Source: Candidatus Parendomicrobium reticulitermitis (GTDB lineage Bacteria > Elusimicrobiota > Endomicrobiia > Endomicrobiales > Endomicrobiaceae). Taken from it: a stretch of 64,000 nucleotides of DNA. Shown one piece after another: positions 9,714 through 62,745 of this stretch (position 1 is its first letter; each line of letters opens with the position of its first letter). The notes below the pieces were generated by a model. It had not been told where the DNA came from. It worked only from the letters and a program-made list of their open reading frames with translations, and made no database searches. The stretch covers positions 26,023-90,022 of the forward strand of contig JAITTG010000087.1 of the NCBI GenBank assembly GCA_031287095.1, in the 5' to 3' direction. The position numbers and the translations under genes were made by a program.

Positions 9714-9740
9714 TTTGGGTGGTTTTGAGAATCGGCAATT

Positions 9741-9793
9741 AGCCTTCTTGCGCAACCAACACATAAAAATGGACGGACATTGTCATTCTGCGC
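9741..9793 (-). repeat. solo right-end fragment of the TIR-MITE family (see 30777, 32641, 59917)
   Basis: AGCCTTCTTGCGCAACCAACACATAAAAATGGACGGACATTGTCATTCTGCGC is the reverse complement of the conserved MITE right end. Similar solo ends at 2881-2929 and 19279-19330. Confidence 0.65.
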
Positions 9794-13367: not shown

Positions 13368-13600
13368 GCGTATATATCTCCTTTTTTCATATTTTCCTTT
13401 CTCCCGCTTTGCGTCCCTCGCTCTCTTTTCAAGGCATACTTTTCAAAATTCCTCTCCCGTAGGAGAGAGTGTCGCGAAGCAACGGGCGAGCGCTCCCATA
13501 TCCCCTATAGTCTTGCAGGTAATAGGGGGCTATTAACAACATTAAACCATTAGGGTTTGAGTATAGCGACCGACTTTAGTATCCCTTCTCCCGTTTTTTA
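13368..13600 (-). promoter_or_regulatory. composite repeat-built leader of pyk (one 82-nt two-hairpin element at 13501-13580 plus a purine-rich proximal module)
   Basis: Collinear, module by module, with the proS leader at 21513-21802. The proximal 45 nt is nearly identical to those of proS and the HD gene. Confidence 0.6.
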
Positions 13601-14389: not shown

Positions 14390-15691
14390 TTAAACTATTT
14401 TAGAGGCTTCGTCAAAAGAGAGATTTCTTGATAAAGCGGCTTTTGCTATGTCTTCATATTCGGCTTTTGATTTTTTGACGCCGTAGCCTTGCCCGGTTTT
14501 GACTTTGATTTTGCCCAGATCGCTATCTTTTTGGCTGATTTTGCGTTCCAATATATATCTTTGACATACAGTTTTACGAATTCCAAAACTCGTTGTGTGT
14601 TTTAACATAAGAGCTGCAAAAAAGTCCGCTTTATCTATGGGACATAAGCATTCAAGCAAGAAAGCAGGGCGGGTTTTCTTCATATATATAGGTATAGTGA
14701 AAACATCTAATGCGCCATTTTTTAGCAAAATCTCTGATGCAAAACCGACTGCCTCGCCTGTCATATCGTCAAGATTGCAAGATAGTTGCGCGATTTCATC
14801 ATTATCTCCATTTGCCATTTCTGAATGCTCTCCACCTTGCATCGTTCCTGAATGCCCCCCCCCTTGCGTCATTCCCGAATGTCTCTGTCGGGAATTGTTT
14901 CCCACACCATAAAAAGCTCTAATGCAATTGGCAATGTCAAAATCTTTTTTTCCCATACCATAACCGATTTTTTCTATTGTCATCTGGGGCAGAGGTTCAA
15001 AATATTGGACAAAATGTTTGAGAATCGCCGCGCCTGTCGGGGTGCAAAGTTCTCCTTTTATTTGACTGCTATAAATTGGAATGCCTTGCAAAATTAAAGC
15101 GGACGCCGGCGCAGGAACTGGCAAAATGCCGTGCGCGCAATGAACAAAACCGCTTCCAACATTTATAGGCGACGCTATTATTTCATTGCAATCCAATATT
15201 TCCATAAGCAAACATACCGCTGTAATATCTGCAATAGCGTCTTTTTGACCTATTTCGTGAAAATGTATTTGTTCAACCGGGCGGTTATGAACTTTGCTTT
15301 CTGCCTCTGCAATGATTTTGTATATGGACAAAGCATTATCTTTTGATTTTTGAGATATTGGAAATGATAATAGTATTTTTTCTATATCGGCAAATCCGCT
15401 GCCGTGATGCCCTTTATGCTTATGAGTTTCATCATGATGAGAATGATGATGTTCGGCTTCTATATCAAAATCTTTTGCTATTTCTTCTTGCCCATCTATG
15501 CTCACATTCATAAGAGTTCCGTTAATAGCGCATTTTTGAGTTTTTTGGGCTGTGATTTTTACTCCGTCAAGACCGAGAGAATTGATTTTTTGCAAAAAGC
15601 CGTCTTTATCATCTATCAATTCAAACAAAGCCGCCGTTAACATATCGCCCGCCGCGCCCATAGAGCATTGTAAATAAAGAATTTTTTTCAC
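14390..15691 (-). CDS. larC: nickel-pincer cofactor nickel insertase LarC
   Basis: N-terminal CSMGAAGDM motif, His-rich stretch EAEHHHSHHDETHKHKGHHG, LarC/DUF111 architecture, adjacent to larB. Confidence 0.85.
   Translation of the reverse strand: MKKILYLQCSMGAAGDMLTAALFELIDDKDGFLQKINSLGLDGVKITAQKTQKCAINGTLMNVSIDGQEEIAKDFDIEAEHHHSHHDETHKHKGHHGSGFADIEKILLSFPISQKSKDNALSIYKIIAEAESKVHNRPVEQIHFHEIGQKDAIADITAVCLLMEILDCNEIIASPINVGSGFVHCAHGILPVPAPASALILQGIPIYSSQIKGELCTPTGAAILKHFVQYFEPLPQMTIEKIGYGMGKKDFDIANCIRAFYGVGNNSRQRHSGMTQGGGHSGTMQGGEHSEMANGDNDEIAQLSCNLDDMTGEAVGFASEILLKNGALDVFTIPIYMKKTRPAFLLECLCPIDKADFFAALMLKHTTSFGIRKTVCQRYILERKISQKDSDLGKIKVKTGQGYGVKKSKAEYEDIAKAALSRNLSFDEASKIV
14808..14895 (+). 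repeat. hairpin-repeat insertion (GTCATTCCCGAATGTCTCTGTCGGGAAT) plus three 27-nt half-repeat units and a C9/G9 tract, all in frame inside larC
   Basis: 14868-14895 matches the intergenic copies at 30962 and 49797 almost perfectly. It is translated on the minus strand as NSRQRHSGMTQ-GGG-HSGTMQGGE-HSEMANG. Homopolymer at 14855-14863. Confidence 0.8.
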
Positions 15692-16458
15692 TTTGCGCTC
15701 TCCATTTTATTGATTAAACTCGCTATATATCCCGCGCCAAAACCATTGTCTATATTTACCACAGACACTCCATTAGCGCAAGAATTAAGCATAGAAAGCA
15801 AAGCGGAAATCCCGCCGAAATTAGCGCCATAACCTACGCTTGTAGGAACTGCTATCACAGGACAAGAAACAAGCCCGCCTATTACTGTTGCAAGAGCGCC
15901 TTCCATACCTGCAACTGCCACAATAGCGCGGGCTTTTACCAAAATATCTTGTTTTGATAAAAGTCTATGTAATCCTGCAACGCCCACATCATAAAGCCGT
16001 TCAACGCGATTCCCCAAAACTTCAGCCGTGATTGCCGCTTCTTCGCAAACTGACATATCGCTTGTGCCGCCTGAGGCTATTACTATCAACCCTTTTTGCT
16101 CTTTTTGCGCATATTTTGCAATACCGAGCGACGCTATCGGCGCGTATCTTAAATCTATATTTTGCGAGATTAAAAAATCCGCAGTTTTTTGAGAAATGCG
16201 CGTGATTAGAATATCCGTTAAACCCTTATCAAGCATATTTAAGACAATTTTTTTGATTTGTTCGTCGGTTTTATTTTTTCCATAAATCACCTCCCCTATG
16301 CCTTGCCGTAAGCCCCGATGATAATCAATATTGGCAAAACCCAAATCCTCAAAAGGCTGGACTTGGAGTTTAAGCAAAGCGTCATCGGCAGAAATTTTGC
16401 CGTCCGAGACGCTTTGTAATAATTTTAAGATTTCTTCTTTGTTATTTGATTTTGGCAT
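15688..16458 (-). CDS. larB: nickel-pincer cofactor biosynthesis protein LarB (PurE-like NaAD carboxylase/hydrolase)
   Basis: 256 aa with a C-terminal AIR-carboxylase-like fold (IVIASGGTSDMSV..., VAGMEGALATVIGG). 4-nt overlap with larC. Confidence 0.85.
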   Translation of the reverse strand: MPKSNNKEEILKLLQSVSDGKISADDALLKLQVQPFEDLGFANIDYHRGLRQGIGEVIYGKNKTDEQIKKIVLNMLDKGLTDILITRISQKTADFLISQNIDLRYAPIASLGIAKYAQKEQKGLIVIASGGTSDMSVCEEAAITAEVLGNRVERLYDVGVAGLHRLLSKQDILVKARAIVAVAGMEGALATVIGGLVSCPVIAVPTSVGYGANFGGISALLSMLNSCANGVSVVNIDNGFGAGYIASLINKMESAK

Positions 16459-16738
16459 TTGAATGTTTTGTTATGATTGCATTGATTATTTTGTATAAGA
16501 CGAAGAGTAATATTAAACCGACGATTCCTGCGCAGATATTGGACAAAGCGTTTTCTTTCATAAAAGGCATTGTATAATCGGTAAATATAGCGGTAGATTC
16601 TTCTACGCTTTGAGCAAAACCCATTTTAGCGGCTAAGAATTCTAGAGTGTCGGGCAAACCTGAAGCAAAAAGGCTTGCCAAAATAACTACCGCTATTGGA
16701 AAGGCATAAGCAAGCGCTTTTTTATTTATTTTCTTCAT
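16442..16738 (-). CDS. PDGLE-domain small membrane protein (CbiN/NikN-like partner of CbiM)
   Basis: 98 aa with two TM segments and an LPDTLE motif. Overlaps both cbiM and larB. Confidence 0.6.
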   Translation of the reverse strand: MKKINKKALAYAFPIAVVILASLFASGLPDTLEFLAAKMGFAQSVEESTAIFTDYTMPFMKENALSNICAGIVGLILLFVLYKIINAIITKHSNAKIK

Positions 16739-17414
16739 CCTGTCCTCCCATAATGTTATAAAAAACCTTTAATAAGACAATAGTGATTGCGCTTTCTAAA
16801 ACGGCAAAAACCAAATGAAGCCTCATCATATCGGAAAAAGCGCCCATAAAAGAGATTTTTCCCGACATTGACAACTCAAACAAACAAAATAAAGCCGCCA
16901 TCATCACAGAGAAAAAGCAAGCCGCGCAGACTGCCAAATAACAATTTTTTTCTTTCAACGCTTTGTATATATAATATGAGAGAAAAGAGCCTACAAAAGC
17001 CATATTCAATATATTTGCGCCAAGCGCAAGAATGCCGCCGTCTCCAAAAAAGAAAGATTGAACTATTAAGACTGAAGAAATTACTAAAACGCCCGCAAAA
17101 GGACCAACCAAAACCGCCGCAAAAACGCCGCCTATAAGATGAGCGGAAGTTGAAGATTGTATAGGTATATTAAACATCTGAAAAGCAAAAATCCAAATAG
17201 CGATAATGGCAAGTTTTTGAAAATACTGCTTTGCGCTTTTAGTAAAAGCCAAATGCCCGCCTGCAATTTTTTGACCATTGTTTCCTGCCAAAACGCCTAC
17301 CAAAACCGTTACTGCTTTTAAAACTTTACTAAAACAATATCCTAAAATACCCACTGCGCCCGCAAGCAACCCGCTTGCAAGATTACTGTTTAAAAATCCA
17401 TCTGGAATGTGCAT
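16722..17414 (-). CDS. cbiM: CbiM/NikM-type ECF substrate-capture subunit (Ni/Co uptake)
   Basis: Canonical MHIPDGFL N-terminus; polytopic membrane protein. Confidence 0.85.
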   Translation of the reverse strand: MHIPDGFLNSNLASGLLAGAVGILGYCFSKVLKAVTVLVGVLAGNNGQKIAGGHLAFTKSAKQYFQKLAIIAIWIFAFQMFNIPIQSSTSAHLIGGVFAAVLVGPFAGVLVISSVLIVQSFFFGDGGILALGANILNMAFVGSFLSYYIYKALKEKNCYLAVCAACFFSVMMAALFCLFELSMSGKISFMGAFSDMMRLHLVFAVLESAITIVLLKVFYNIMGGQDEENK

Positions 17415-17557
17415 GCTAAACCTCCATTTATTTTTTATTTACCGCTAATTCCCGCTTGTGCGTTTGACCCGCAACCTGCTTTTAAGCCGCCGCCTGCAGG
17501 TAAGACCTACAATCTCCTATATTATGCGGAGAGAGCAATGACGACAATACTTTTGCC

Positions 17558-18391
17558 TTATGCTTTATTGGCTTGTATTACATCTTTTGAAAGCGTTTCA
17601 TTCATACTTCCGCTACGATAACCCAAGATGTCCATAGTTATATAAGTAAAACCTATTTTTTTAAATTCATCATGTACTTTCTTGCGGTTTTGAAGAGCGC
17701 AAATCAGCGAAAAACCAGATTCGTCAGTCTCAATTCTTGCAAGATTATTGTGCATTCTCACTCTAACTTGTCTTATGCCCATATCCAAAAGAAATTGTTC
17801 GGCTTTGTCTATCATAGACAATTTTTCGGGCGTGATTTCTTCTCCATAGGGAAAACGAGAAGATAGGCATGCAAAAGATTGTTTATTCCAAGTGGAAAGC
17901 CCAAGTTCTTTTGAAAGAGTTCTGATTTCTTCTTTATTAAGTTGGGCAAAACGCAAAGGACTTTTGATTCCTTTTTCCGCAATAGCCTTTAAGCCGGGGC
18001 GAAAGTCGCCATTATCGTCCATATTGGAGCCTTCAAAAATATTGTCTATTTTATTTTGGACGGCTATGTCTTGGATTTTGGAAAACAATTCAGATTTGCA
18101 CAGATAACATCTATTGATAGGATTGCGGGAAAAGCCTTCTATATCTAATTCTTCGCTATCTACAATTATATGTTTGACGCCCTCTTTTTTGCAAAAAGCA
18201 ATAGTCTCATTTAATTCTCTTTGCGGAAAAGAGCAAGAACGGGCGGTGATTGCAATAGTCTTATCTCCCAAAATGTCATGGCTTACTTTTAATAAAAAAG
18301 TGGAATCCACTCCTCCGGAAAACGCCACAGCGGCATTCCCGCAAGATGATATATATTCCCGCAATTTTTGTTCTTTTTGGCTTATGTCCAT
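17558..18391 (-). CDS. larE: ATP-dependent sacrificial sulfur transferase LarE
   Basis: ORF 17558..18502. Likely start MDISQKEQKL at 18391. PP-loop AVAFSGGVDSTFLL and CYLCK motif; size (277 aa) fits LarE. Confidence 0.8.
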   Translation of the reverse strand: MDISQKEQKLREYISSCGNAAVAFSGGVDSTFLLKVSHDILGDKTIAITARSCSFPQRELNETIAFCKKEGVKHIIVDSEELDIEGFSRNPINRCYLCKSELFSKIQDIAVQNKIDNIFEGSNMDDNGDFRPGLKAIAEKGIKSPLRFAQLNKEEIRTLSKELGLSTWNKQSFACLSSRFPYGEEITPEKLSMIDKAEQFLLDMGIRQVRVRMHNNLARIETDESGFSLICALQNRKKVHDEFKKIGFTYITMDILGYRSGSMNETLSKDVIQANKA

Positions 18392-18932
18392 TTTTATTAC
18401 TTCCAATGTTTGTATATCATTAATTGACTGGCGGGATAATAGCAAAAAGCCTTGTAAAAGACAAACAAACTGCATTCTATAATTATGCCTACACAAACAC
18501 ACCTCTTGCCATCAGGCATGTTGAAGGGATTATTGCAGTGGAACGCAAAAATAGTAGAAAATTCAGCGTGATGAACGCAGTTTGCATATTAGATTCTGAC
18601 CCATAGGATGCGCAACAATTTACCCAAAAAATGAAAAAAATCCTATACTTATGTAAAAAAATAAATGATATGATATATAAATATACTATGGGCGTATAAA
18701 TATATAAATATGGGGGGTTTACGATATAATAGTTAAACATTAAATTGGACGATGTTGTAATGCAAAGGCTGGCAATATTGCCAAACTTACTGACAGGATA
18801 AAAACTTATTATGCCAAACAAGCAATTATACAGCATTTAGAAGATTTAAAAGATGGGGCAAGAGCGGAAGGAGAGATTGAAAGAATTGCCATAGGGTAAG
18901 AATAGGTTTATTCGTATGGATTATGAAAGAAA

Positions 18933-19157: not shown

Positions 19158-19897
19158 CACCACATTGAATGAAACTTATGAAATTTATGAGGATGTTTTG
19201 AGAAAAACGCATTGATTATTGCGCGGGTTTCCATAAGTTTTTTGAAATTATTCTTAATAAATAAGATTTTTTCTCTTAGATCTCTTGCGCAACTAACACA
19301 TAAGAATAGATGGACACTGTGTGCCCTACAACTATGCGCAAGGTAAACTCAGTTGCAGAGCGCAGGCTCAGATCCGTCGCGGAATCCATTTAAAAGTTCG
19401 TCATTCTCGAATGTCCTTGTATGGAATCCACTTTTGCCTAAGGCTGCATGAAATGTCCCGCCCCAGCCTGCGGATATTCTAAATGCTGGTAAGTAGAACG
19501 GCAGATAGAAAAGATGGGAGAGAAAAGACAACAAAAATAAAAAACAAATCTATAGACGCGCTACGCGCGTAAAAACAGAAAAAGAGAAAAATTGAATCAA
19601 AATCCCCAAAAAACCGAACCTTGTATGGGCGAATTTCAAATCTGTCCACCGTTACAAAATGCAAAACCGAAAATTTGATGAAGTTGAAATTGAAAACACA
19701 TTGAAAAATAAATATGAAAATTGAAATCAAAAATATAAAAAATCTGAACCTTGTAGGGTGGTTTTAATACGCCGTTTTGTAAAAAGCCCAATCGTTTTGC
19801 AAAATCTTATATCACAAAAATTTGTAATCAAATTAAGAATATCTCCGACATTATCAAATTTCACAATTATTCATTTATTTGTTGCGATTTTTACAAA

Positions 19898-20251
19898 TTG
19901 ATAGAAAATGCTTCGGAGGACGATTTTATATATTGCGACCCGCCTTATATTGATAGATACAATGATTATTTTAACTCTTGGAATGAATATGATGAAAATA
20001 GGCTTTGCGTTGTTTTAAGCCAAACGAAAGCCAAATTTTTATTGTCCACTTGGCGCAGCAATAAATATAGGGAGAATGTTTACATAAAGAGTTTATGGAG
20101 CGGTTTCAATATAGACGCCAAAGAACATTTTTATCACTTGGGAGCGAGTGAAAAAAATAGAAATTCTATGACAGAGGCTCTCATTTCAAATTTTGTCAGC
20201 GATAATACTCAAAAAGATTTTTCTATTAAAAATATTCAATTGCCGTTATAA
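19898..20251 (+). pseudogene. 3' fragment of a Dam-type (D12 class) N6-adenine DNA methyltransferase
   Basis: The frame opens just before the DPPY motif ([16 protein letters not shown]). The whole N-terminal SAM-binding half is missing, and repeat debris lies upstream. Confidence 0.7.
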
Positions 20252-20340
20252 ATATAAACAACTTATGTAAAAGTTGAAATAAAATGAATAAAACATATTA
20301 TCTCCTGTTTGCATAATAGAATTTTAAATTAAAGGTATTT

Positions 20341-21426
20341 ATGAATACAAATTTATCTACTCAATCCCATTTAAATTATAGTCAAAGAGTTAATCTCGGC
20401 AGTTATTATACTAATCTTGAAATAGTTGATTTTATCTACGGGCTTTTAAAAAAGAATATCGCAAGTTTTAATGATTATTGTATTTTAGATACTTCTTGCG
20501 GGTATGGTTCTTTTTTTGGAACGGATTTGCCCAATAGAAGAATCGGCGCTGATATTGATTTGAACGCTTTAAAAGAAGCGCAAAAGAATTTTGACAGCAT
20601 TGAATTTTATCATCAAAATGGTTTGCAAAATATCAGCAGAACAAAATACGCCTTATCTCAAAAAGACAAACTTATAATAGTCGGCAACCCGCCTTATAAT
20701 GATAGAACTTCAATAATCAGGCATAGTATTAAACTTAATGATGCTGGCGCTATTGACGATGATGTAAATACAAGGGATTTAGGCATTTCCTTTATGCTTT
20801 CTTATAATAAACTTTGCGCTGATTTTGTATGCGTTTTGCACCCATTGTCATATCTAATTAAAAAATCAAATTTCTCGCTTTTAAAACCTTTTGCGAGCAA
20901 TTATCAACTTTTGGATTCCCTCATTATAAGTAGCGGAGTATTCTCGCAAACTTCAAAAACAATGTCATTTCCAATAATAATAGCGCTGTATAAAAGATGT
21001 CTTTTGGGTATGGATTATGAGTTCGTCAAACAATATGATTTCAAAACAAGTGAAAAGACAAAATTCAAATTGAAAGATTTTGATTCAATTGAACGCTATA
21101 TTGCAAAGTATCCAAACCAACAATCGGTGCGCGCGCAGGAAGCAGTTGCAAAATTTTGGACAATGAGAGATATAAATGCTTTAAAAAGAAATAGCACTTT
21201 TATTGATGAGATATGCTCAAATACTGTTTTTATTACAAAAGATAAATTTGATTATTATTGTTATGTTGACGTTTTTAAAGAATATGCCAAAAATATCCCG
21301 TATTATTTCGGCAATTGCGATGTGATGATAGACAATAAAAAATTTTTAGAATTAAGAGATTGTTTCAGATTTGAGAGCATTAAAAACAATCCTTGCTATC
21401 AAAAAAATTTGCTTTGCCATCGGTAA
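20341..21426 (+). CDS. N6-adenine DNA methyltransferase (gamma class, Eco57I/TaqI-like), no partner nuclease seen
   Basis: GSYYTNLEIVDFI, DTSCGYGSFF (motif I) and IIVGNPPYN (motif IV). Confidence 0.7.
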   Translation: MNTNLSTQSHLNYSQRVNLGSYYTNLEIVDFIYGLLKKNIASFNDYCILDTSCGYGSFFGTDLPNRRIGADIDLNALKEAQKNFDSIEFYHQNGLQNISRTKYALSQKDKLIIVGNPPYNDRTSIIRHSIKLNDAGAIDDDVNTRDLGISFMLSYNKLCADFVCVLHPLSYLIKKSNFSLLKPFASNYQLLDSLIISSGVFSQTSKTMSFPIIIALYKRCLLGMDYEFVKQYDFKTSEKTKFKLKDFDSIERYIAKYPNQQSVRAQEAVAKFWTMRDINALKRNSTFIDEICSNTVFITKDKFDYYCYVDVFKEYAKNIPYYFGNCDVMIDNKKFLELRDCFRFESIKNNPCYQKNLLCHR

Positions 21427-21512: not shown

Positions 21513-21802
21513 AGGGGGTGAAGGACGCAATGCGGGAGAGGGGACGCTAAAGTCAATCGCTACCCCCAAACCCTGAAAGGATTTAATGTAGTTAATAACC
21601 CCATATTGCCTGCAAGGCTATGCGGGGACAACAGGAGCGCGTCGCGACCCTCACCCGTAGTTGCGCGACACCTTCTCCTTCTCAATAGTCCCTTTTCCTA
21701 TCATATCCTCTCATATGGGAGAGAGACTTTGAAAAGCATGCCTTGAAAAGAGGGAGAGGGTCGCGAAAGCAGGAGAGGAAAAATAAGGAAAAAGGAGATA
21801 TT
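21513..21802 (+). promoter_or_regulatory. composite repeat-built leader of proS (one 82-nt two-hairpin element at 21548-21628 plus a purine-rich proximal module at 21728-21802)
   Basis: Same module order as the pyk leader. Ends in AAAAAGGAGATATTATG. Confidence 0.6.
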
Positions 21803-25003: not shown

Positions 25004-26467
25004 ATGACGGACATTAAAAAGATAAAACAAAATGGGAAAGTTTATACTCCGCAGTATATTGTTAACAATATGCTTGATTTTGTCGGATATACAGATGACA
25101 ATATTTTAAGCAAGCATATTGTTGACAATAGTTGCGGCGATGGCGCTTTTTTAACGCAAATAGTTGATAGATATTGCCGCGCTTTTTTAAGAAATAATTC
25201 CAATAAATTAAATTTGAAGAAAAATCTTGAAAAATACATTCATGGAATTGAGATTGAGCAAGAAGAAGCGCAAAACTGTAAAACCAATTTAAACAAAGTT
25301 GCCCAAAAATTTAAAATAAAAAATACCAATTGGAATATTATTTGCGGCGATTCATTAGAAATATCTGATTTTAACGGTAAAATGGATTTTGTCGTAGGCA
25401 ATCCGCCTTATGTCAGAGTTCATAATTTAATTGATAGTTATGACAAGGTAAAATCTTTTCAATTTGCAGGAGCGGGAATGACAGATTTATACATTGTGTT
25501 TTTTGAAATAGGATTTAATATGTTAAATCAAACGGGGAAAATGTGTTTAATTAGCCCAAGTTCATTTTTTAGAAGTAAATCAGGAAGCGTTTTAAGAAGT
25601 CATATAAAAAGAAAGCGCTGTTTATCAAAAGTCATAGATTTGGAACATTTTCAACCTTTTGAAGCGGCGGCATATACTGCGATTACAATGTTTGATAATA
25701 ATAAACATACGGATATTGATTATTATGTATATGATGGACTTAGTAAAAGTCCTCGTTATATTGAGCGGCTAAGTTATGATGATTTTTTTATAGACAATAA
25801 AATAGTTTTATCAAATAAAAAACAATTATCAATGCTGTTGAATATAGAAGATTATTATAAAAACTCATCTCCAAGAGAAATAGTAGTAAAAAATGGATTT
25901 GCCACATTAGCCGACGCCGCTTTTATCGGGGATATAGATATAAATGACGAATTTGTGATTGATATTATAAAAGCCTCAACTGGAAAATGGAAAAAATGTA
26001 TATTTCCTTACTTATGCAATGGAAAACCAATTTCTGAAATAGATTTACAAAAAAAACACAAAGCGGTGTATAACTATTTGTTAAATCAGAAAGAGCTATT
26101 GCTAAAACGGGACATTTTAAATAGAGGCGATTGGTTTTTGTTTGGAAGGACACAAGGCATAAATGATGTGTTCAGATATAAAATCGCAGTTAATTCAATA
26201 ATCAAAGATATTGCAAGCATAAAGATAAATGAAATTCCTTCCGGGAGCGCAGTATATAGCGGATTATATATTTTATCTCCTTACACATTTCATGACATAC
26301 AATCAGCTTTGTTATCTCAAGATTTTATTGATTATTTAAAACTGCTCAAAAATTATAAAAGCGGCGGATATTATACTATGTCGTCGCTTGAATTAGAAAA
26401 ATACCTGACTTACAAAATACAAGGTGCAATTTATGAACAACAAGAACTTTTTAGAAAAGTTAATTGA
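25004..26467 (+). CDS. type II N6-adenine DNA methyltransferase (Eco57I/TaqI-like, with C-terminal target-recognition domain)
   Basis: KVYTPQYIVNNML, DNSCGDGAFL (motif I) and FVVGNPPYVRVHN (motif IV). 487 aa. Confidence 0.8.
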   Translation: MTDIKKIKQNGKVYTPQYIVNNMLDFVGYTDDNILSKHIVDNSCGDGAFLTQIVDRYCRAFLRNNSNKLNLKKNLEKYIHGIEIEQEEAQNCKTNLNKVAQKFKIKNTNWNIICGDSLEISDFNGKMDFVVGNPPYVRVHNLIDSYDKVKSFQFAGAGMTDLYIVFFEIGFNMLNQTGKMCLISPSSFFRSKSGSVLRSHIKRKRCLSKVIDLEHFQPFEAAAYTAITMFDNNKHTDIDYYVYDGLSKSPRYIERLSYDDFFIDNKIVLSNKKQLSMLLNIEDYYKNSSPREIVVKNGFATLADAAFIGDIDINDEFVIDIIKASTGKWKKCIFPYLCNGKPISEIDLQKKHKAVYNYLLNQKELLLKRDILNRGDWFLFGRTQGINDVFRYKIAVNSIIKDIASIKINEIPSGSAVYSGLYILSPYTFHDIQSALLSQDFIDYLKLLKNYKSGGYYTMSSLELEKYLTYKIQGAIYEQQELFRKVN

Positions 26468-28400: not shown

Positions 28401-29654
28401 ATGAACAAACCGCAACTTTTACTTCCTGCTGGAAATATGGACGCTTTTAAAACTGCCCTCTTATACGGCGCAGACGCCGTCTATGCCGGGTTGCCGTCTA
28501 TGAATTTGCGTTCAAGGGAAAATTTTCCTATTGAGGATTTACAGGAATGTATAAAAAAATCTCATAGTCTTGGCAAAAAAACATATCTTGCCTTAAATCT
28601 TTTTTCCCGCAATAAAGATATAGCGAAGTTAGACGCCGCTATTTCTACAATCAAATTTTTAAATCCCGACGGATTGATAATATCCGACCCGGGCATTTTT
28701 GCAAAAATCAAAAAAGAAATTCCAGACTTGCCTTTGAATGTCTCAACTCAGGCTAATGTTTGCTCTTGGCTTACTGTTGATTTTTGGCAAAAACAGGGGG
28801 CGGCTTTATGCGTTTTGGGACGAGAAGTTTCTTTTAAAGAGGCTGTAGAAATTAGAGAAAAATGTCCCGATACTAAACTTGAAATTTTTGTCCACGGCGC
28901 TATGTGCATCAGTTATTCAGGCAGATGTTTATTGTCCGCATTTATGGCTTCCCGCAGCGCTAATGCGGGGCTATGCGCCCACTCTTGCAGGTGGAAATAT
29001 AAAAGCAAATTGGTTTTGGAAGAAGAAATGCGCCCCAATGAATTTTTAGAACTTTATGAAGACGAGCAGGGCTCTTATATTTTAAATTCAAAAGATTTAT
29101 GCCTTATGCCAAAACTCAATCAAATTCTGTGCGCAGGTTTTGACTCTTTAAAAATAGAAGGCAGGAATAAAAGCGAATACTATATAGCCCAAACCGCCCG
29201 CGCTTATCGCAAAGCAATAGACGATTATTTTGAAAATCCAAAAGATTGGAAAGCAGACATTTATATGCAAGAACTTTTGACTTTGCAAAACAGAGGATAT
29301 ACTACGGCTTTTTTTGACGGCGTTCCAGACGGTTCTGATCAAAATTTTAACGATACGGCAAGCATTAGCGATTGGCAAAGTGCGGGAATAGTCAAAGGCT
29401 ATAAAGATTGCTTATTAGAAATTGAAGTGAAAAACAAAATTCAAAAAGGACAAGAAATAGAATTGTTATCCCCATATCAATTTGAACCGTTCAAAATTGT
29501 AATAGACAAAATGATTGATGGAAAAAACAATAAAGAAATAGATTTAATGTCTGCCGGCAAAACAGGACAAACAATAAAAATCCCAATCAAAGACGCCAAA
29601 TTGTTTCCAAAATATACTGTCGCTCGCAAGCGCTGTCCGTCATTGCAAGATTGA
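28401..29654 (+). CDS. peptidase U32 family protein
   Basis: MNKPQLLLPAGNMDAFKTALLYGADAVYAGL N-terminus and Cys-rich core (GAMCISYSGRCLLS...CAHSCRW). The last codons CPSLQD-stop lie in a GTCATTGC repeat. Confidence 0.8.
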   Translation: MNKPQLLLPAGNMDAFKTALLYGADAVYAGLPSMNLRSRENFPIEDLQECIKKSHSLGKKTYLALNLFSRNKDIAKLDAAISTIKFLNPDGLIISDPGIFAKIKKEIPDLPLNVSTQANVCSWLTVDFWQKQGAALCVLGREVSFKEAVEIREKCPDTKLEIFVHGAMCISYSGRCLLSAFMASRSANAGLCAHSCRWKYKSKLVLEEEMRPNEFLELYEDEQGSYILNSKDLCLMPKLNQILCAGFDSLKIEGRNKSEYYIAQTARAYRKAIDDYFENPKDWKADIYMQELLTLQNRGYTTAFFDGVPDGSDQNFNDTASISDWQSAGIVKGYKDCLLEIEVKNKIQKGQEIELLSPYQFEPFKIVIDKMIDGKNNKEIDLMSAGKTGQTIKIPIKDAKLFPKYTVARKRCPSLQD

Positions 29655-29904
29655 TTCGCAATCAGAATACAAACAATTTTAAAAGAGATTGGGCGGCATT
29701 TTCGTCATTGCGGGCTTGACCCGCAATCTCTGCTATCGCATTAGTTGTCAATTGCGCGCTTTGTCGTGTTTTCAGTCTGCGCATATCGCAGCGGCGGATT
29801 TCAAACCCGCCCAAAAAGTTGTCATTCTATACCGAGTCATTTTGTCTTGTCATTGCGCGTCCTGCGGCTTCACGCAGAATGACATATCAAAAAAGGAAAT
29901 TAAA

Positions 29905-30663: not shown

Positions 30664-30776
30664 ATTGACAAAAAACAAAAAGGCAAACGGCAGGCAAATA
30701 ATGATTTGCCGCTACAAACAACATAATATCGGTTGCGCAAGGGGACTAATCTACAACAATCAAGGACAATATCAAT

Positions 30777-31176
30777 AGACCTCTTGTATAATTGATATAC
30801 AAAAAATGTAAGAATATAAGGTTGTTATTGTGGACTTGCTATTCGTTGCGGGTTTGACCTGCGCGGTATAGAAAATATAAGCCATATTCAAATTAAGCGT
30901 CAATCTCGCAACCGCGGTAAAGCCGCGCCTATCGCATCATTCTCGAATGTTGCGCCAGCGCGTCATTCCCGAATGTCTCTGTCGGGAATCCATTTTTGCC
31001 ATTGCCTTTTTTAACTTGGATTCCCGATAACAAATTTCGGGAATGACGAATAAAAGGCTTGCCCTATTTTCAAGCGGGTTGATGACAACGGTAACTCGCT
31101 GTCATTGTGCGCCCCGCGATTTCGCGCAAAATGACAATGTCCGTCTATTTTTATATGTTGGTTGCGCAAGAGGTCT
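30777..31176 (+). mobile_element. non-autonomous TIR element (MITE), ~400 bp, carrying nested hairpin repeats
   Basis: Ends AGACCTCTTGT... and ...GCAAGAGGTCT are inverted repeats. Flanked by AAT (30774-30776) and AAT (31177-31179). Interior contains GTCATTCCCGA hairpins at 30962-30991 and 31018-31047. Confidence 0.7.
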
Positions 31177-31177
31177 A

Positions 31178-32329
31178 ATGAAAAAATTTTATATCTATTC
31201 TTTCGGCTGTAAAGTCAATCGTTATGAAACAGAACTCATATCGCAAAAATTAAAAAGCGGCGATTATGAAATAGCCGATACTCCCCAAGAGGCAGACGCA
31301 ATAATTTTTAATTCTTGTTCTGTCACAAACAATGCCGACAAAGAGTGTTTATATTTAATCAGGAAATCTTTAAAACTACCTCAAAAACCGCAAATCATTC
31401 TCACAGGGTGCCTTGCAATCAATAAATTTCAAGAGTTAAAAAAACTCTTTCCATCTATTGAAGTAATATCAGACAAAAAAACTTTATATTTACAGCCTGA
31501 CAATCAAAGCATAATCTCTTTTGAAAATCATCATCGCGCTTTTATCAAAATCCAAGACGGCTGCAATAGTTTCTGCTCATATTGCATAGTTCCTTATATA
31601 AGAAGCCAAATGTGGAGCAAGCAGCCGGAGGCTGTTCTTTCAGAAATAGAAAATCTCGTCAAAAACGGATACAGCGAAATAGTTTTGACAGGCATACACA
31701 TCGGCAAATACGAAGGCGGTATAGCCCCGCTGATAGAAAAAATAGTCAAAATCCCGTTGGATTTTAGAATCCGCATATCGTCCATAGAAATCAATGAAAT
31801 TAATGACTATCTATTGTCTTTGATGAAAGATTATGAAAACAAAATATGCTCTCACCTACACATACCATTACAATCAGGCAGCGGCGGTATTTTAAAATTG
31901 ATGAACAGACAATACGCAAGCGCCGTCTTTGAAAACAAAATCCAAAAAATTGCCGCTATGTTTAAAAACATAGCCATAACAACAGATATCATAGCTGGTT
32001 TTCCAAGCGAGACAAATGCTCAACACAAAGAAACTTGCGACTTTATAAAAAGAAATCCATTTTCAAGGCTGCACATTTTTAGATATTCAGACAGAAGCGG
32101 CGCAAAAGCCTCAAATTTCAAAAACAAAGTCCCGCCTCAAGAAATCAAAGCCCGTTCCAAAGAACTATTAGGAATAGACAAATCAAAAAGAAAAGACTTT
32201 TTAACGGCAAATACAGGCTCAACAAGAAAAGCAGTCAGCATATCTCCCAATGCATCTCTAACAGACAATTACATAACCATTTCAAACGCCGCATATCAAA
32301 AAGGCATTTTTGATATTAAAATAGAATAG
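31178..32329 (+). CDS. mtaB: radical-SAM methylthiotransferase, MtaB/MiaB-like
   Basis: Start MKKFYIYSFGCKVNRYE at 31178; the track ORF from 31043 reads through the MITE. UPF0004 domain and a CNSFCSYC rSAM cluster. Confidence 0.8.
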   Translation: MKKFYIYSFGCKVNRYETELISQKLKSGDYEIADTPQEADAIIFNSCSVTNNADKECLYLIRKSLKLPQKPQIILTGCLAINKFQELKKLFPSIEVISDKKTLYLQPDNQSIISFENHHRAFIKIQDGCNSFCSYCIVPYIRSQMWSKQPEAVLSEIENLVKNGYSEIVLTGIHIGKYEGGIAPLIEKIVKIPLDFRIRISSIEINEINDYLLSLMKDYENKICSHLHIPLQSGSGGILKLMNRQYASAVFENKIQKIAAMFKNIAITTDIIAGFPSETNAQHKETCDFIKRNPFSRLHIFRYSDRSGAKASNFKNKVPPQEIKARSKELLGIDKSKRKDFLTANTGSTRKAVSISPNASLTDNYITISNAAYQKGIFDIKIE

Positions 32330-32476: not shown

Positions 32477-32640
32477 AATTAGATGATTAAATGCGAGGTT
32501 TCTTAAAAGCGGACAGAAACAAAAACCGGACGAGAAATCGTCTTAAAATTAAATAAAACCATCCACAAATAAGGATAATTGCGGGTAGTTTTTATGTTTT
32601 ATAAGCAAATAGCAAGCAAACAATTGAATATAGATGCAAT

Positions 32641-32799
32641 GGACCTCTTGCATAACTGATATACAAAAAATGTAAGAATATAAGATTGCCGTTGTGCGCT
32701 AACAGAACTCATCAGTGCGAAAACAAGATTGTCATTCTGCGCGAAGCCGTAGAATGACACTATCCCTCTATTTTTATGTGTTGGTTGCGCAAGAGATCT
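32641..32799 (+). mobile_element. non-autonomous TIR element (MITE), minimal 159-bp copy
   Basis: GGACCTCTTGC...GCAAGAGATCT termini. AAT at 32638-32640 and at 32800-32802. Internal GTCATTCTGCG/CGTAGAATGAC hairpin. Confidence 0.7.
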
Positions 32800-32806
32800 A
32801 ATGGAT

Positions 32807-32858
32807 AAAAAACCGCGCAGGCTAAAAGCGTAATGCTTTTGGTTTGCGCGGTTTTTTT
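32807..32858 (+). terminator. compound stem-loop with flanking A/T runs
   Basis: AAAAACCGCGCA...TGCGCGGTTTTTTT with an inner AAAAGC-GTAAT-GCTTTT hairpin. Confidence 0.5.
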
Positions 32859-36618: not shown

Positions 36619-36948
36619 TAAAGTCAATCGCCACAATCAAACCCTGAAAGGGTTTAATGAAGTTAATAACCCCGTATTGCCTGCAAGGCTATGCGGGGGC
36701 GATAAAGTCAATCGCAACAATCAAACACTGAAAGGGTTTAATGCAGTTAATAACCCCGTATTGCCACAGGCTATGCGGGGACGATAAAGTCAATCGCCAC
36801 AACCAAACCCTGAAAGGGTTTAATGCAGTTAATAACCCCGTATTGCCGCAGGCTATGCGGGGACGATAAAGTCAATCGCCGCACCCAAACCCTGAAAGGG
36901 TTTAATGTAGTTAATAACCCCGTATTGCCTGCAAAGGCTATGCGGGGA
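36619..36948 (+). repeat. four tandem copies of the 82-nt two-hairpin leader element
   Basis: Copies at 36619-36702, 36703-36784, 36785-36866 and 36867-36948. Stems conserved, linker and loop variable. Ends 15 nt before the rSAM ATG. Confidence 0.9.
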
Positions 36949-36963
36949 CACAAGGAAACCAAA

Positions 36964-43553: not shown

Positions 43554-46385
43554 ATGGACATCATCAAAATTCGCGGCGCGCGCCAGCACAATCTTAAAAA
43601 TATTGACTTGGATATTCCAAGAAATAAATTGGTTGTAATCACGGGACTTTCAGGTTCGGGTAAATCTTCTCTTGCTTTTAATACTATTTATGCCGAAGGG
43701 CAGAGGAGATATGTAGAGTCTCTTTCCGCTTATGCCCGCCAATTTTTAGAATTGCTTGAAAAACCCGATGTTGATATTATAGAAGGTCTTTCTCCCGCCA
43801 TATCTATAGAGCAAAGAAATCCGTCGCATAATCCTCGTTCCACTGTAGGCACTGTCACAGAAATTTATGATTATTTGAGGCTTTTATTTGCAAGAGTAGG
43901 CGTTCCTCATTGCCCTAAATGCGGTAAGGAAATTCACCCGCAATCAGCGCAGCAAATCATTGATGAAGTGATGAAAATTGCGGAAGGTTCTCTGATACAT
44001 ATATTGTCGCCTCTCATCAAAGGGCATACCGGAACTTACGAAGAACTTTTTGCCCGTCTTGCTAAAAGCGGATATACGAGAGTGAGAGTAGACGGTAAAG
44101 TTTATAATCTGGAAGATAAAATAGCGTTGGACAGATACAAAAAACACAGCATAGACATAGTTGTGGACAGAATAAAAATGAATGATACGGCAAGAGCAAG
44201 AGTTGCAAGTTCTATTGAGACGGCATTAAAAGAATCAAAAGGTCTTGCGGCGGCGGCTATTGTCTCAAAGGATGGAAAAGTTTTGTCCGAACAGATTTTT
44301 AGCGAAAAATATTCTTGTATAGATTGCGGTATAAGCATTTTAGAAATTGAGCCGCGCTTATTTTCTTTCAATACCCCTTTTGGCGCTTGCCCTGAATGCT
44401 CAGGTCTTGGCAATAAAATTGAAATTGATGAAAATTTAGTAGTGCCGGACAAAAAAAGAGCGATAAAATACGGAGCAATCGCCGCTTGGTCTGAGCCTAT
44501 TACCACAAGAACAAATAGATGGAAAAATTCTTGGGGCGGCTATTATTGGGATTTATTAAGCGAGGCGGCAAAACGCAACAAAATCCCGCTTGAAAAACCT
44601 TGGGAAGAATTGTCAAGAAAGCAGCAAGAGATTATGTTATACGGCGACGGCGGTTTTGAAGGCGTGATTACCAATATGAAGCGCCGTTACGACGAGACAG
44701 AATCCGATTTTGTCCGCGAAGAAATTTTTAATAAGTATATGAGTTCAAAAATTTGCCCGTCTTGCAAAGGCAAAAGGTTAAAAAAAGAGGCTCTGTCTGT
44801 TCTTATAGACAATAAGTCCATAGCCGATATTACAAAAATGTCAGTAGAGCAAAGTTTAAAATTTTTTGGCGAGATTGAATTCAGCGCAAAAAACAAAATC
44901 ATCAGCAAAGCCGTATTAAAAGAAATCAAAGACAGGCTGTTTTTTCTAAACAATGTCGGGCTTGGCTATTTGAGTTTGGCAAGGGAAAGCGGCACGCTTT
45001 CAGGCGGGGAGGGGCAAAGGATACATCTTGCCACGCAAATCGGCTCTGGTCTTACGGGAGTTTTATATGTTTTAGACGAGCCTTCTATCGGTCTTCATCA
45101 AAGAGACAATGATAAATTGCTTGAAACTTTAAGAAAACTCAGAGATTTAGGAAATTCGTTGATAGTGGTAGAGCATGACGAGGACACAATAAGAGCGGCG
45201 GATTTTGTTATTGATTTAGGTCCCGGCGCGGGAACGCATGGCGGGCAAATCACCGGGATAGGAACGCCGTCAGATATAATCAAATCTAAAAAATCTATCA
45301 CGGGACAATATCTAAACGGCAAACTCAGCATCCCTCTTCCCAAAAAGAGAAAACAGCCGTCTGGCAAATGCTTGAGCGTCAAAGGCGCGTCTCATTTCAA
45401 TTTAAAAAATATAAATATTGATATACCGCTCGGTTTATTTGTCTGCATAAGCGGAGTGTCGGGCAGCGGAAAATCCACTTTGGTTCATGAAATCATATAT
45501 AAAAATCTTGCTCAGTCCATTTATGGCTCAAAGGCTCAGCCCGGAAAATTCAAAGAGATGAATGGTATGGAAAATATAGACAAAGTTGTAATTGTCGACC
45601 AATCTCCCATAGGCAGAACGCCGCGTTCAAATCCCGTCACCTATACGGGCGCATTTACTATCGTCAGAGATTTGTTTGCTCAAATGCCTGAGTCCAAAGC
45701 GAGAGGTTATACTTCCGGCAGATTTTCTTTTAATGTTAAAGGCGGCAGATGCGAAAATTGTCAAGGCGACGGAACTTTAAAAATAGCGATGCAATTTCTG
45801 CCCGACCTTTATGTCAATTGCGACATTTGCAACGGTAAAAGGTTTAATGACGAGACTTTGCAAATAAAATATAAAGGTAAAAACATATACGAAATTTTGG
45901 ATATGACTATAGAAGAAGGCGTTAAATTCTTTGAAAACATTCCAACGCTAAAAAGAATTTTAGAAACAATAAACGATGTGGGATTAGGCTATATAAAACT
46001 CGGACAACCCGCCACAACTCTTTCCGGCGGCGAAGCCCAAAGGGTAAAACTTGCATCAGAACTTTCCAAAAGAGCCACAGGCAGAACAATTTACATTCTT
46101 GACGAGCCGACAACTGGCTTACATTTTGCCGATGTAGGAAAACTTTTAGAAGTTTTGCAGCGGCTAACTTATGCGGGCAACACAGTTTTGGTAATAGAGC
46201 ATAATTTAGATGTGTTAAAAACCGCAGATTGGATAATAGATTTAGGTCCTGAAGGCGGCGAAGCCGGGGGCAAAATAATCGCTGCGGGATCTCCCGAACA
46301 AATAATAAAAAACCAAAAATCATGGACAGGGCAGTATTTGAAAGCGCATATAGGACAAAAGAAATTGTCGTCATTGCGGACTTGA
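43554..46385 (+). CDS. uvrA: excinuclease ABC subunit A
   Basis: 943 aa. [42 protein letters not shown], two ABC modules and Zn-finger Cys pairs. The last codons SSLRT-stop lie in a repeat. Confidence 0.95.
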
Positions 46386-46449
46386 CTTGAAAAAGTCCAC
46401 AAAGCATTTTGAGGCAAACGACGGAGATTGCGGCTCAAGCCTGCAATGA
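46369..46449 (+). repeat. 81-bp double-hairpin element with GTCATTGCGG...CCTGCAATGAC inverted termini
   Basis: Overlaps the uvrA stop. Homologous element at 48207-48285 overlapping the tgt stop. Single hairpins at 29639, 29704, 30615, 58120, 10830 and 11675. Confidence 0.75.
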
Positions 46450-47081: not shown

Positions 47082-48221
47082 ATGCAAATAGGAGATTGGC
47101 AGTTTTTAAAAAAATCTTCCGAGTGCCGCGCAAGATTGGGGAAAGTTTTTACTTTGCGCGGTATTATTGATACGCCCGCTTTTATGCCTGTGGGAACGCA
47201 AGGCAGCGTTAAGGGCGTGCCTATGGAATTTTTAAAGAATTCTAAAGCGCAGATTATTCTTGCTAATTCTTATCACTTATATTTGCGTCCGGGAACTGAA
47301 ATTGTCAAAAATGCCGGCGGCATACAAAAATTTAATTCTTGGGATAAACCTATGCTTACCGATTCCGGCGGGTTTCAAATTTTTAGTTTAAACGATATTA
47401 GGAAAATCAAAGACGACGGAGTAGAATTCAAATCCCATATAGACGGCTCAACTCACTTTTTTTCTCCCGAAAAATCTATGCAAATTCAAAAAGATATAGG
47501 CGCGGATATTATCATGGCTTTTGACGATTGCACTCCTTATCCCGCCGATTATGACTATGCAAAAAAGTCTATGGAATTAAGCCTCAAATGGGCGGCAAGA
47601 TGTAAAGAAGAATTTTATAAAGACGATTCTTGCGATAGGCAGGCGCTTTTTGGAATTGTGCAAGGCTCTGTTTATGATGATTTACGCAAAATCAGCGCTG
47701 AATCTATGCAGGAAATTGATTTTGTAGGCTATGCCATAGGCGGTCTTTCCGTAGGCGAGCCGAAAGAGGATATGCGCAGAATTTTAGATAATATATGTCC
47801 AATTTTGCCTGATAATAAAGCGCGCTATCTTATGGGCGTTGGTATGCCTGAGGATTTATGGGAATGCGTTGAGCGGGGAATAGATATGTTTGATTGCGTA
47901 ATCCCGACGAGAAATGGGCGCAATGGACAGGTTTTTACAAGTCAAGGCAAAATCAATATAAGAAATGCCCAATATAGACAAGACTTTACCGCTCTTGACC
48001 CAGACTGCGATTGTCCCGCCTGCAAAGGATATACAAAAGCATATCTCAATCATTTAGTCCGCGCCCAAGAAACTTTATATCTCGCTCTTTTATCCGTCCA
48101 CAATATATATTTTATGCTAAATCTAATGGAAAAAATAAGGCAATCCCTTGCTAACGACGCATTCTTTGAAGCCAAAACAAATTTTTTCAAAAATTATTAT
48201 AAGTCGTCATTACAAGTTTGA
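47082..48221 (+). CDS. tgt: queuine tRNA-ribosyltransferase
   Basis: TPAFMPVGTQGSVKG, LTDSGGFQ and a CDCPAC zinc motif. The C-terminal SSLQV-stop is encoded by a repeat. Confidence 0.95.
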   Translation: MQIGDWQFLKKSSECRARLGKVFTLRGIIDTPAFMPVGTQGSVKGVPMEFLKNSKAQIILANSYHLYLRPGTEIVKNAGGIQKFNSWDKPMLTDSGGFQIFSLNDIRKIKDDGVEFKSHIDGSTHFFSPEKSMQIQKDIGADIIMAFDDCTPYPADYDYAKKSMELSLKWAARCKEEFYKDDSCDRQALFGIVQGSVYDDLRKISAESMQEIDFVGYAIGGLSVGEPKEDMRRILDNICPILPDNKARYLMGVGMPEDLWECVERGIDMFDCVIPTRNGRNGQVFTSQGKINIRNAQYRQDFTALDPDCDCPACKGYTKAYLNHLVRAQETLYLALLSVHNIYFMLNLMEKIRQSLANDAFFEAKTNFFKNYYKSSLQV

Positions 48222-48342
48222 CCCGCAATATTCCCGCGAAGCGTTTTGAGGCAAACAATAACGGAGATTGCGGGGCAAGACAGCAGGCGGCGGAAGGTAA
48301 AAACGGATTTTTAGGCAGCCTCGTTTATCACAAGGAATTATT

Positions 48343-49716: not shown

Positions 49717-49796
49717 CACATAAAGAATTGCCGTAAAATATAGCGAGCGCTTCATGACAAACCTGAATTCACATTCCCAAATGCCGCGCCTGCTGC

Positions 49797-49826
49797 GTCA
49801 TTCCCGAATGTCTCTGTCGGGAATCC
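49797..49826 (+). repeat. hairpin repeat GTCATTCCCGA-ATGTCTCTG-TCGGGAATCC
   Basis: Identical to 30962-30991 and nearly identical to 14868-14895 inside larC. Degenerate copies at 19399 and 59990-60060. Confidence 0.8.
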
Positions 49827-59848: not shown

Positions 59849-59916
59849 GGAAACGCGAATTAATTTATTGAATGCCTTTAGCCATGCGCAATGACGAGTT
59901 AACTATATTTGATAAT

Positions 59917-60128
59917 AGCCCTCTTGCATAACTGGTATACAAAGAATGTAAGAATATATCTATTGTCATTGCCAAAAATCGCCCACAATGCGTCATTTCC
60001 GAAAGTTGTTATCGGAAATCCAAGTTAAAAACAACGGCAAGTGGATTCCCGACAAAGACGCTCGGGAACGGCGGAGGCGCACAATGACAATGTCCGTTTA
60101 TTTTATATGTCGGTTGCGCAAGAAGTCT
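59917..60128 (+). mobile_element. non-autonomous TIR element (MITE), 212-bp copy with nested hairpin repeats
   Basis: AGCCCTCTTGC...GCAAGAAGTCT termini. AAT at 59914-59916 and at 60129-60131. Confidence 0.7.
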
Positions 60129-60153
60129 AATTAGCGTTTCCATAAGTTTTGCG

Positions 60154-60649: not shown

Positions 60650-60665
60650 TTGTATCTCCTTGTGT

Positions 60666-62613: not shown

Positions 62614-62745
62614 TCCCCGCGTATAGTCTTGCAGACAATACGGAGTTATTAACGACATTAACCTCTTTCGGAATTTAATTGCAGCGATTGATTTTAGTAT
62701 CCCCGCAGCCTTATTAACAGCCCTAAACTCTTTTAGGATTTAGCG
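62614..62745 (-). repeat. one full and one internally deleted copy of the leader element upstream of gltX
   Basis: Full copy at about 62614-62697 and a degenerate copy at 62699-62745, followed by a REP palindrome at 62748-62775. Confidence 0.75.

Follow-up and report, generated by a model that had tools for sequence, protein, structure and literature searches.

The window analyzed here is a 64,000-nucleotide (nt) stretch of contig JAITTG010000087.1 from Candidatus Parendomicrobium reticulitermitis, with a G+C content of 38%. Its larC gene, encoding the nickel-pincer cofactor biosynthesis protein LarC, contains a block of repeat sequence made up of a hairpin of the repetitive extragenic palindromic (REP) type and two 27-nt units. 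An original prediction, made from the sequence alone, had proposed that an intergenic-type hairpin repeat and a tract of nine G residues (G9) were inserted in frame where the two LarC domains meet, and that the tract could act as a switch. The features at the locus are as follows.

14390 to 15691, minus strand: larC coding sequence, 433 amino acids (aa), frame 0 intact, with a GTG start that overlaps the larB stop
14816 to 14896, minus strand: inserted repeat block, 81 nt, 27 codons, LarC residues 266 to 292 (NSRQRHSGMTQGGGHSGTMQGGEHSEM)
14816 to 14842, unstranded: 27-nt unit 1 (CATTTCTGAATGCTCTCCACCTTGCAT), which includes the ATG of M292 (14816 to 14818)
14843 to 14869, unstranded: 27-nt unit 2 (CGTTCCTGAATGCCCCCCCCCTTGCGT), corresponding to the one upstream unit of intergenic copies
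14855 to 14863, minus strand: G9 tract (C9 on the plus strand), codons 277 to 279, GGG GGG GGG
14868 to 14895, unstranded: 28-nt REP hairpin unit GTCATTCCCGAATGTCTCTGTCGGGAAT, identical to the copies at 30962 and 49797

The 433-aa open reading frame (ORF) is unambiguously a LarC with both the LarC1 and LarC2 domains. The Pfam family PF01969 (Ni_insertion/LarC) matched residues 5 to 428 at 1e-130, covering profile positions 1 to 373 of 375, and a sequence search matched the protein to full-length Moorella thermoacetica LarC (PDB 12bi) at 8e-56 and to the Lactobacillus plantarum LarC2 structure (PDB 6bwo) at 1e-19, the latter alignment beginning at residue 298. In a Foldseek comparison against the PDB, the C-terminal domain superposed on 6bwo (TMt, 0.81); full-length LarC 12bi was not among the Foldseek PDB matches. 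Because Foldseek gave the LarC2 domain alone, our mapping of the linker rests on sequence alignment and on the AlphaFold model. LarC is a CTP-dependent cyclometallase in which LarC1 binds nickel and LarC2 binds CTP. The closest LarC homologues in the protein search carry Endomicrobium or Elusimicrobiota annotation.

The residues expected of a working enzyme are in place. E131, H135, H143, H145, E146, D151, D155, H187, and E214 are invariant alignment columns and correspond, at a constant offset of +27, to M. thermoacetica E104, H108, H116, H118, E119, D124, D128, H160, and E187, all of which are essential by alanine scanning (PMC13510736). This mapping was taken from the sequence alignment to 12bi rather than from structure superposition, and the check covers the alanine-scanned residues that map by that constant offset.

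How is the block built? Three positions, 14868, 30962, and 49797, carry GTCATTCCCGAATGTCTCTGTCGGGAAT without a mismatch, and shuffled windows gave 0 matches; the 28-mer is thus shared exactly, where the original prediction had called the copies almost identical. The hairpin unit consists of an 8-bp stem (14871 to 14878 pairing with 14888 to 14895; ATTCCCGA/TCGGGAAT), a 9-nt loop, and a CGTC tag at 14867 to 14870, and the lone hairpin folds at -10.2 kcal/mol (z = -3.2). Next to it lie the two further 27-nt half-repeat units that had also been predicted, recovered by Tandem Repeats Finder as a period of 27 nt with 2.6 copies at 14816 to 14886. Units 1 and 2 agree at 21 of 27 positions by our own count and are closer to each other than either is to the intergenic units. 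The larC copy thus has two upstream units versus one 26- or 27-nt unit in the copies at 30962 and 49797, and by comparison of these sequences unit 1 is probably a tandem duplication that arose in situ or before insertion. On the coding strand the block reads ...NNSRQRHSGMTQGGGHSGTMQGGEHSEMANG..., and 4 of its 6 frames contain no stop codon. A 27-nt unit equals 9 codons, so the reading frame was kept through insertion and tandem duplication alike. The peptide from the frame in use is rich in Gly, Ser, Thr, His, and Met.

As the original prediction had suggested, we delimited the insertion by aligning orthologues. In an alignment of 24 LarCs, the segment SRQRHSGMTQGGGHSGTMQGGEHSEM had no counterpart in 22 of the 23 homologues, and it was missing from the two closest orthologues, P0002 (69% identity) and P0003 (61% identity). 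With the ORF intact and the closest orthologues free of the segment, the repeat is an in-frame insertion. The distance between the anchor motifs NCxRxF and NxDD is 45 aa here, compared to 16 to 20 aa in the majority of the 116 homologues measured; it is 47 aa in one Spirochaete protein and 30 to 35 aa in three others. These differences indicate that the tether is naturally length-plastic, with the window LarC at the extreme. Short tandem amino acid repeats (SHAAG/SHAAN, GTEGTEGT, and NTAA-D-NTAA) are present in the linkers of P0085, P0097, P0032, and P0002, which points to the tether as a general hot spot for small duplications.

The insertion falls at the interdomain junction, as had been predicted. 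Residues 268 to 301 form an unaligned interdomain gap in the match to 12bi, and the match to 6bwo starts at residue 298. An AlphaFold2 model, run with an alignment, had a mean predicted local distance difference test (pLDDT) score of 80 and fell below 50 only in a His-rich loop (residues 79 to 97) and at residues 269 to 296; the latter segment is bordered by strand 256 to 264, the last of LarC1, and strand 298 to 307, the first of LarC2. Structure prediction, the second check that had been proposed, thus placed the segment in a low-pLDDT linker and not in a folded domain, and the inserted residues are predicted to be disordered and without contacts. The range first given for the insert, about residues 265 to 296, was close in position; its limits are revised to 266 to 292 (14816 to 14896) by codon arithmetic on the window sequence and the coding sequence, whereas the low-confidence stretch of the model spans 269 to 296. 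Alignment and model together support an in-frame insertion of the repeat in the linker between LarC1 and LarC2.

In a 2026 cryo-electron microscopy study of M. thermoacetica LarC, a flexible 13-residue linker joins LarC1 and LarC2 at the matching position (PMC13510736). Deleting that linker, shortening it from 13 to 7 residues, replacing it with a rigid helix, or replacing it with GGGGS each reduced activity to <10%; the alterations tested did not include lengthening (PMC13510736). The insert thus sits in an element of LarC that is functionally sensitive. In L. plantarum, LarC1 (residues 1 to 271) and LarC2 (residues 272 to 412) come from two separate ORFs that a programmed frameshift connects (PMC13510736), which bears out the earlier statement that larC is split there at the matching junction.

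We then considered the family to which the repeat belongs. Seven members align within the 64 kb, of which the larC copy is the only one not located between genes. The principal members outside larC are listed below.

30939 to 30989, plus strand: intergenic copy, one 26-nt unit plus the identical 28-mer
31020 to 31048, minus strand: inverted partner arm, forming a REP dimer with 30962 to 30989 that folds at -43.4 kcal/mol (z = -8.5)
49774 to 49824, plus strand: intergenic copy, one 27-nt unit plus the identical 28-mer
19377 to 19427, plus strand: diverged intergenic member, 63% (family D2)
59969 to 60019, plus strand: diverged intergenic member, with an inverted partner at 60039 to 60076

The copy at 30939 to 30989 lies between an ORF ending at 30633 and an ORF starting after 31043. 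Inverted dimers are found at 30962/31048 and at 59994/60076, and the motif CGTCATT occurs at 14867, 19399, 30961, 49796, 59991, and, on the minus strand, 31042, being missing only in the most diverged of the seven copies. A short palindromic stem-loop with CGTC at one end, in multiple mainly intergenic copies and in inverted dimers near ORF ends, fits a CGTC-tagged REP-type hairpin as judged from sequence features. No Y1 transposase was found among the approximately 25 window ORFs scanned with Pfam.

A sister REP family, CGTCATTGCGGG-CTTGA-CCCGCAAT, has the same layout as the hairpin family in larC. Its copies at 29637 to 29662, 46368 to 46393, and 48204 to 48229 overlap the 3' ends of three genes, and the ORFs ending at 29654, 46385 (uvrA), and 48221 take their stop codon from the TGA of the loop; the final ~5 codons of these three genes are consequently repeat encoded. 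Composite intergenic mosaics were seen at 30773 to 31186, 32637 to 32809, and 59913 to 60131, with partial inverted copies at 9738 to 9793 and 19267 to 19324. Their layout is a 60-nt repeat, REP hairpins, and a 55- to 60-nt repeat ending in AGAGG, resembling a ribosome-binding site, plus ATG, and they recall the arrays of Neisseria intergenic mosaic elements (NIME).

The element is not confined to this locus or this genome. The larC gene of the closest orthologue, P0002 (on contig L119), has no linker insert and instead carries a REP dimer in frame in the His-rich loop (RHCGLDPQSPTMDEIAGQARND). This dimer (L119, 215 to 282) belongs to the sister REP family and consists of two perfectly inverted 25-nt arms, CGTCATTGCGGGCTTGACCCGCAAT, 17 nt apart; one arm and its preceding base match window positions 29702 to 29727 at 25 of 26 positions, and the dimer within the coding region folds at -57.8 kcal/mol. 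For the hairpin itself, the degenerate motif GTCATTCCCGA-N9-TCGGGAAT(CCA) was found at at least 118 genome loci (L001 to L118) in many phyla; among the matches listed are Nitrospirota, Omnitrophota, Elusimicrobiota, Ignavibacteria, Zetaproteobacteria, Methylococcales, and Leptospiraceae. The base before GTCATT in the copies from other phyla is T in 59% and C in 32%. The exact 28-mer, including the loop, was present in 30 metagenome contigs (L121 to L150) with G+C contents from 33% to 55%. The presence of an identical sequence in such distant hosts suggests that the hairpin has spread horizontally or is under a strong common constraint; no transposase was identified for the cross-phylum hairpin.

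Several of these copies also lie within coding regions. In a Bacteroidota enzyme (L055), the hairpin is in frame at a site between the Eco57I methylase domain and the TaqI_C domain, as confirmed with Pfam. Further in-frame copies lie inside a 3144-aa protein (L148), in two orthologous proteins of 300 to 500 aa (L121/L122), and in long ORFs of L070/L078 and L087.

Could the G9 tract make larC switchable? The tract is the sole G/C run of at least 7 nt in the 64 kb, the next longest being 6 nt, and composition predicts about 0.01 to 0.04 runs of C9 or G9 per window. No run of A or of T in the window exceeds 8 nt, although composition predicts about 2.6 runs of at least 9 nt; across all four bases, the larC C9 is thus the longest homopolymer present, in keeping with the earlier description of the tract as conspicuous. 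It is composed of GGG, the rarest Gly codon (11%). Removal of one G would bring a stop after 309 aa and addition of one G a stop after 296 aa; both products contain LarC1 only, as had been foreseen for a change in tract length. G/C tracts of at least 8 nt are hypermutable and prone to slippage in many bacteria, which makes the G9 a real mutational hot spot.

These properties favor a contingency locus, in which slippage at the G9, in DNA or during transcription, would reversibly toggle between full-length LarC and a LarC1-only product and so tune nickel-pincer cofactor synthesis. Such a locus would mirror, at the level of DNA, the L. plantarum larC1/larC2 frameshift (PMC13510736), which takes place at the corresponding position, the truncations here likewise falling at the LarC1/LarC2 border. 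Several observations speak against it, and we consider it unlikely. The tract has a trivial origin at hand: it coincides with the G+C-rich spacer in one of the repeat units, and the intergenic units have sequence of the GCCGCGCC type there. At the matching place unit 1 has an interrupted tract, GGTGGAGAG, giving the codons GGT GGA GAG; AT-biased decay of a G run could give such a sequence. Because the full-length protein is already in frame 0, recoding is unnecessary. No other long G/C tract exists in the window, and there is thus no sign of a genome-wide contingency strategy; moreover, genes for cofactor biosynthesis are atypical as phase-variable genes.

Comparative and structural searches gave no more encouragement to a switch. 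One assembly of the allele was found in the searchable collections. In a search of 5.8 billion proteins, the match to its own protein was followed by a next match of 69% identity, and no second assembly of the allele appeared; the protein cluster had two entries, both from the same 122,910-nt contig and differing solely in the translation of the start codon. An allele-specific 36-mer matched 0 metagenome contigs, exact look-ups of two proteins from the ends of the window gave no record, and no truncated LarC1-only homologue of this lineage was present among the top protein matches. A 126-nt region around the tract folded no better than its shuffles (z = +0.74), Rfam gave no match around the tract even at E values up to 1, and the promoter-like sites around larC did not exceed the number expected from shuffles. 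On these grounds an internal promoter was rejected, as were a terminator and a frameshift stimulator. G GGG GGG formally has the X XXY YYZ pattern, yet with a single frame 0 ORF and no stimulatory structure it does not qualify as a programmed -1 frameshift site. A poly-G sequencing artifact was rejected as well, the tract being internal, exactly 9 nt long, and in frame. Runs of G7 and G8 occur in a G-rich stretch at the extreme end of the orthologous contig (L119, 3250 to 3337) and may be a poly-G sequencing artifact or a Gly/Arg-rich coding region. We infer that the G9 in larC is an incidental mutational hot spot and not an established regulatory device.

A more elaborate form of the switch starts from a GGAG in unit 1, located 11 nt upstream of the in-frame ATG of M292 (14816 to 14818), from which a separate LarC2 product could follow. 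Since a slipped frame terminates within a few codons of GGAG-N11-ATG, LarC2 re-initiation could occur there, and the repeat would then have brought a reversible switch in which a slip at the G9 yields a LarC1 fragment and re-initiation yields complete LarC2. If true, one selfish insertion would have recreated the split larC1/larC2 of L. plantarum as a phase-variable state controlling nickel-pincer cofactor supply. We regard this possibility as very improbable.

Another question is whether the repeat peptide has itself been put to use. It might have been kept as a nickel-binding or hand-off arm by the interdomain cleft, or as a tether that widens LarC1 movement. In favor of such a role, the peptide RHSGM..HSGTM..HSEM offers 4 His, 4 Met, and acidic residues with a regular HSxM spacing; His-rich nickel sites and a flexible linker are needed for LarC function, and an intermediate analogue binds the cleft at the linker (PMC13510736). 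Other linkers, for example those of P0085 and P0097, contain short His-containing tandem repeats, and the ORF has stayed intact despite a hypermutable tract. The HS.M motif, however, follows automatically from translation of the palindrome CATTCnnGAATG, so selection is not needed to account for it. No relative was found to carry the insert, which leaves no conservation signal, and the predicted disorder and lack of contacts of the segment also argue against an adopted function. Exaptation of the peptide is accordingly unlikely in our view.

Finally, larC could have been inactivated, decaying toward a pseudogene through a crippled tether, or the segment could be an assembly artifact caused by the repeat. 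Genomes rich in selfish repeats often hold decaying genes, and every linker alteration tested in the M. thermoacetica enzyme was damaging. Against decay, the 433-aa ORF is uninterrupted with all invariant LarC residues retained, natural LarCs with equally long linkers exist, and the adjacent lar and cbi genes are intact. Against an artifact, both flanks of the repeat are larC in one frame, unlike the outcome of a repeat-mediated misjoin. We therefore rate these possibilities as highly improbable. The neighboring genes, assigned with Pfam, are as follows.

15688 to 16458, minus strand: larB
16442 to 16738, minus strand: PDGLE/CbiN-like gene
16722 to 17414, minus strand: cbiM
17558 to 18502, minus strand: PP-loop LarE-like gene

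larC is the last gene of this LarE-like, cbiM, PDGLE, larB, larC cluster, whose other members lie upstream of it at 15688 to 18502 on the minus strand, and the order cbiM-PDGLE-larB-larC is identical in the orthologous locus L120. With an intact ORF, catalytic residues kept, and a syntenic gene cluster, larC looks functional as far as its sequence and context can indicate.

We consider it likely that the larC block is a tolerated insertion of a selfish repeat in the length-plastic LarC tether. According to this explanation, a CGTC-tagged REP palindrome that otherwise resides between genes of an Endomicrobia-like genome would have been copied into larC, landing in the part of the gene that specifies the flexible LarC1-LarC2 tether. 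Tolerance would have come from the frame-keeping 27-nt unit, from the 4 of 6 stop-free frames, from the disorder of the encoded peptide, and from a linker that was already variable in length. The outcome would be a full-length LarC with a tether ~27 residues longer, in which the G+C-rich spacer of a repeat unit happens to be read as three Gly codons and a slip of ±1 at that spot would truncate LarC just past LarC1. That LarC with the insert is still active and that the element arrived by this route are the parts of the account that we infer.

Some of the data weigh against this explanation. The 28-mer is 100% identical in three copies, while the adjacent units are only 65 to 86% alike, which hints at concerted evolution or at selection on the hairpin, beyond a model of a passive passenger. 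Neither a target-site duplication nor a second inverted arm is visible at the borders of the larC copy. Three consecutive uses of the rarest Gly codon, forming the longest homopolymer of the window, would be unusual if purely incidental. In addition, given how strongly M. thermoacetica LarC responded to changes in its linker, a threefold longer tether may not be neutral.

With this insertion, larC is a clear case, outside the Proteobacteria, of a REP-type selfish repeat that has become part of an enzyme. The insert falls in a segment marked as critical for LarC catalysis by the 2026 cryo-electron microscopy and mutagenesis (PMC13510736), and the gene can therefore serve as a natural experiment on the tolerance of a threefold longer LarC1-LarC2 tether. 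Different repeats at different permissive sites of larC in two sister lineages show that these elements readily colonize disordered loops. Should the G9 prove variable, this would be an unusual example of phase-variable cofactor biosynthesis; should it prove fixed, the locus would be an ordinary tolerated insertion.

Other repeats were seen in the window. A family of 82-nt tandem repeats, with up to 4 units per array, occurs at 36619 to 36949, 60665 to 60886, 21531 to 21637, 62622 to 62697, and 13506 to 13545. In the first three of these arrays the terminal sequence is AAGGCTATGCGGGGACA..AGGA, located upstream of a gene start, and genes for ProRS, GluRS, and pyruvate kinase are among those adjoining 82-nt repeats. 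The family had no Rfam match at the gathering threshold or at E values up to 1, and it may represent a leader present in several copies or an element with a promoter and a ribosome-binding site. Beside repeat-rich spacers lie a D12-class adenine methyltransferase fragment and two Eco57I-type methylase-like ORFs (19898 to 21426 and 25004 to 26467), which are probably remnants of restriction-modification systems.

How does the larC insertion compare with systems described previously? Contingency loci of Neisseria, Haemophilus, Campylobacter, and Helicobacter share with it a G/C run of 9 within an ORF at which a change of ±1 truncates the product; they differ in that larC encodes a cofactor biosynthesis enzyme rather than a surface or restriction-modification function and that its tract is the only one in 64 kb. 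The resemblance to L. plantarum larC1/larC2 lies in the identical position of the boundary, where a frameshift decides between LarC1 only and the full-length protein. The two L. plantarum ORFs are out of frame and require recoding, whereas the window larC is fused in frame 0, so that a shift can only destroy it.

[quoted passage not shown] The larC copy does not have terminal inverted repeats of 15 to 30 bp, and we rejected the MITE class because there is no target-site duplication, one arm only, and no parent insertion sequence identified. The 20-bp consensus of the Neisseria repeat dRS3, ATTCCC-N8-GGGAAT (PMC1797815), has the same termini as the larC element, with 8 nt at its center versus 13 nt here; identity with dRS3 was rejected, since the spacing of ATTCCC-N13-GGGAAT is wrong.

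As a phenomenon, the larC insertion resembles the Rickettsia palindromic elements (RPEs) found in frame in protein-coding genes (Ogata et al. 2000, reviewed in PMC10969869). In both cases the host is a housekeeping or metabolic enzyme whose ORF stays intact around a selfish palindrome placed in frame at a surface or linker site that fits the fold, and the copy of the gene in a sister lineage holds a different element at another site. RPE-1-type elements are Rickettsia specific and ~100 to 150 bp long, whereas the larC insert is 81 nt; given the phylum and this size, sequence homology to RPE-1 is unlikely.

The element can be placed in the CGTC-tagged REP superfamily, among whose members are dRS3 of Neisseria (CGTC-1) and RPE-6 and RPE-4 of Rickettsia conorii (Di Nocera et al. 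2013, PMC3733652). Like the larC element, these REPs are stem-loops of 25 to 30 nt with CGTC at one end, multicopy and mostly intergenic; like its family, they frequently form inverted dimers, lie near or overlap the 3' ends of ORFs, and occasionally enter genes. In contrast to the GTAG REPs, which are associated with REP-associated tyrosine transposases (RAYTs), the CGTC superfamily has no known dedicated transposase (PMC3733652). Two differences can be noted: Elusimicrobiota/Endomicrobia are absent from the five phyla listed in PMC3733652, and the larC copy is a single hairpin after two 27-nt half units rather than a dimer. Intragenic CGTC and GTAG REPs have been catalogued, typically as dimers or groups encoding 20 to 30 aa (PMC3733652). 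In-frame intragenic REP insertions are thus already known in other bacteria (PMC3733652), and the larC case fits that kind; because an insertion of this described kind explains everything seen at the locus, a regulatory role for the G9 is not needed.

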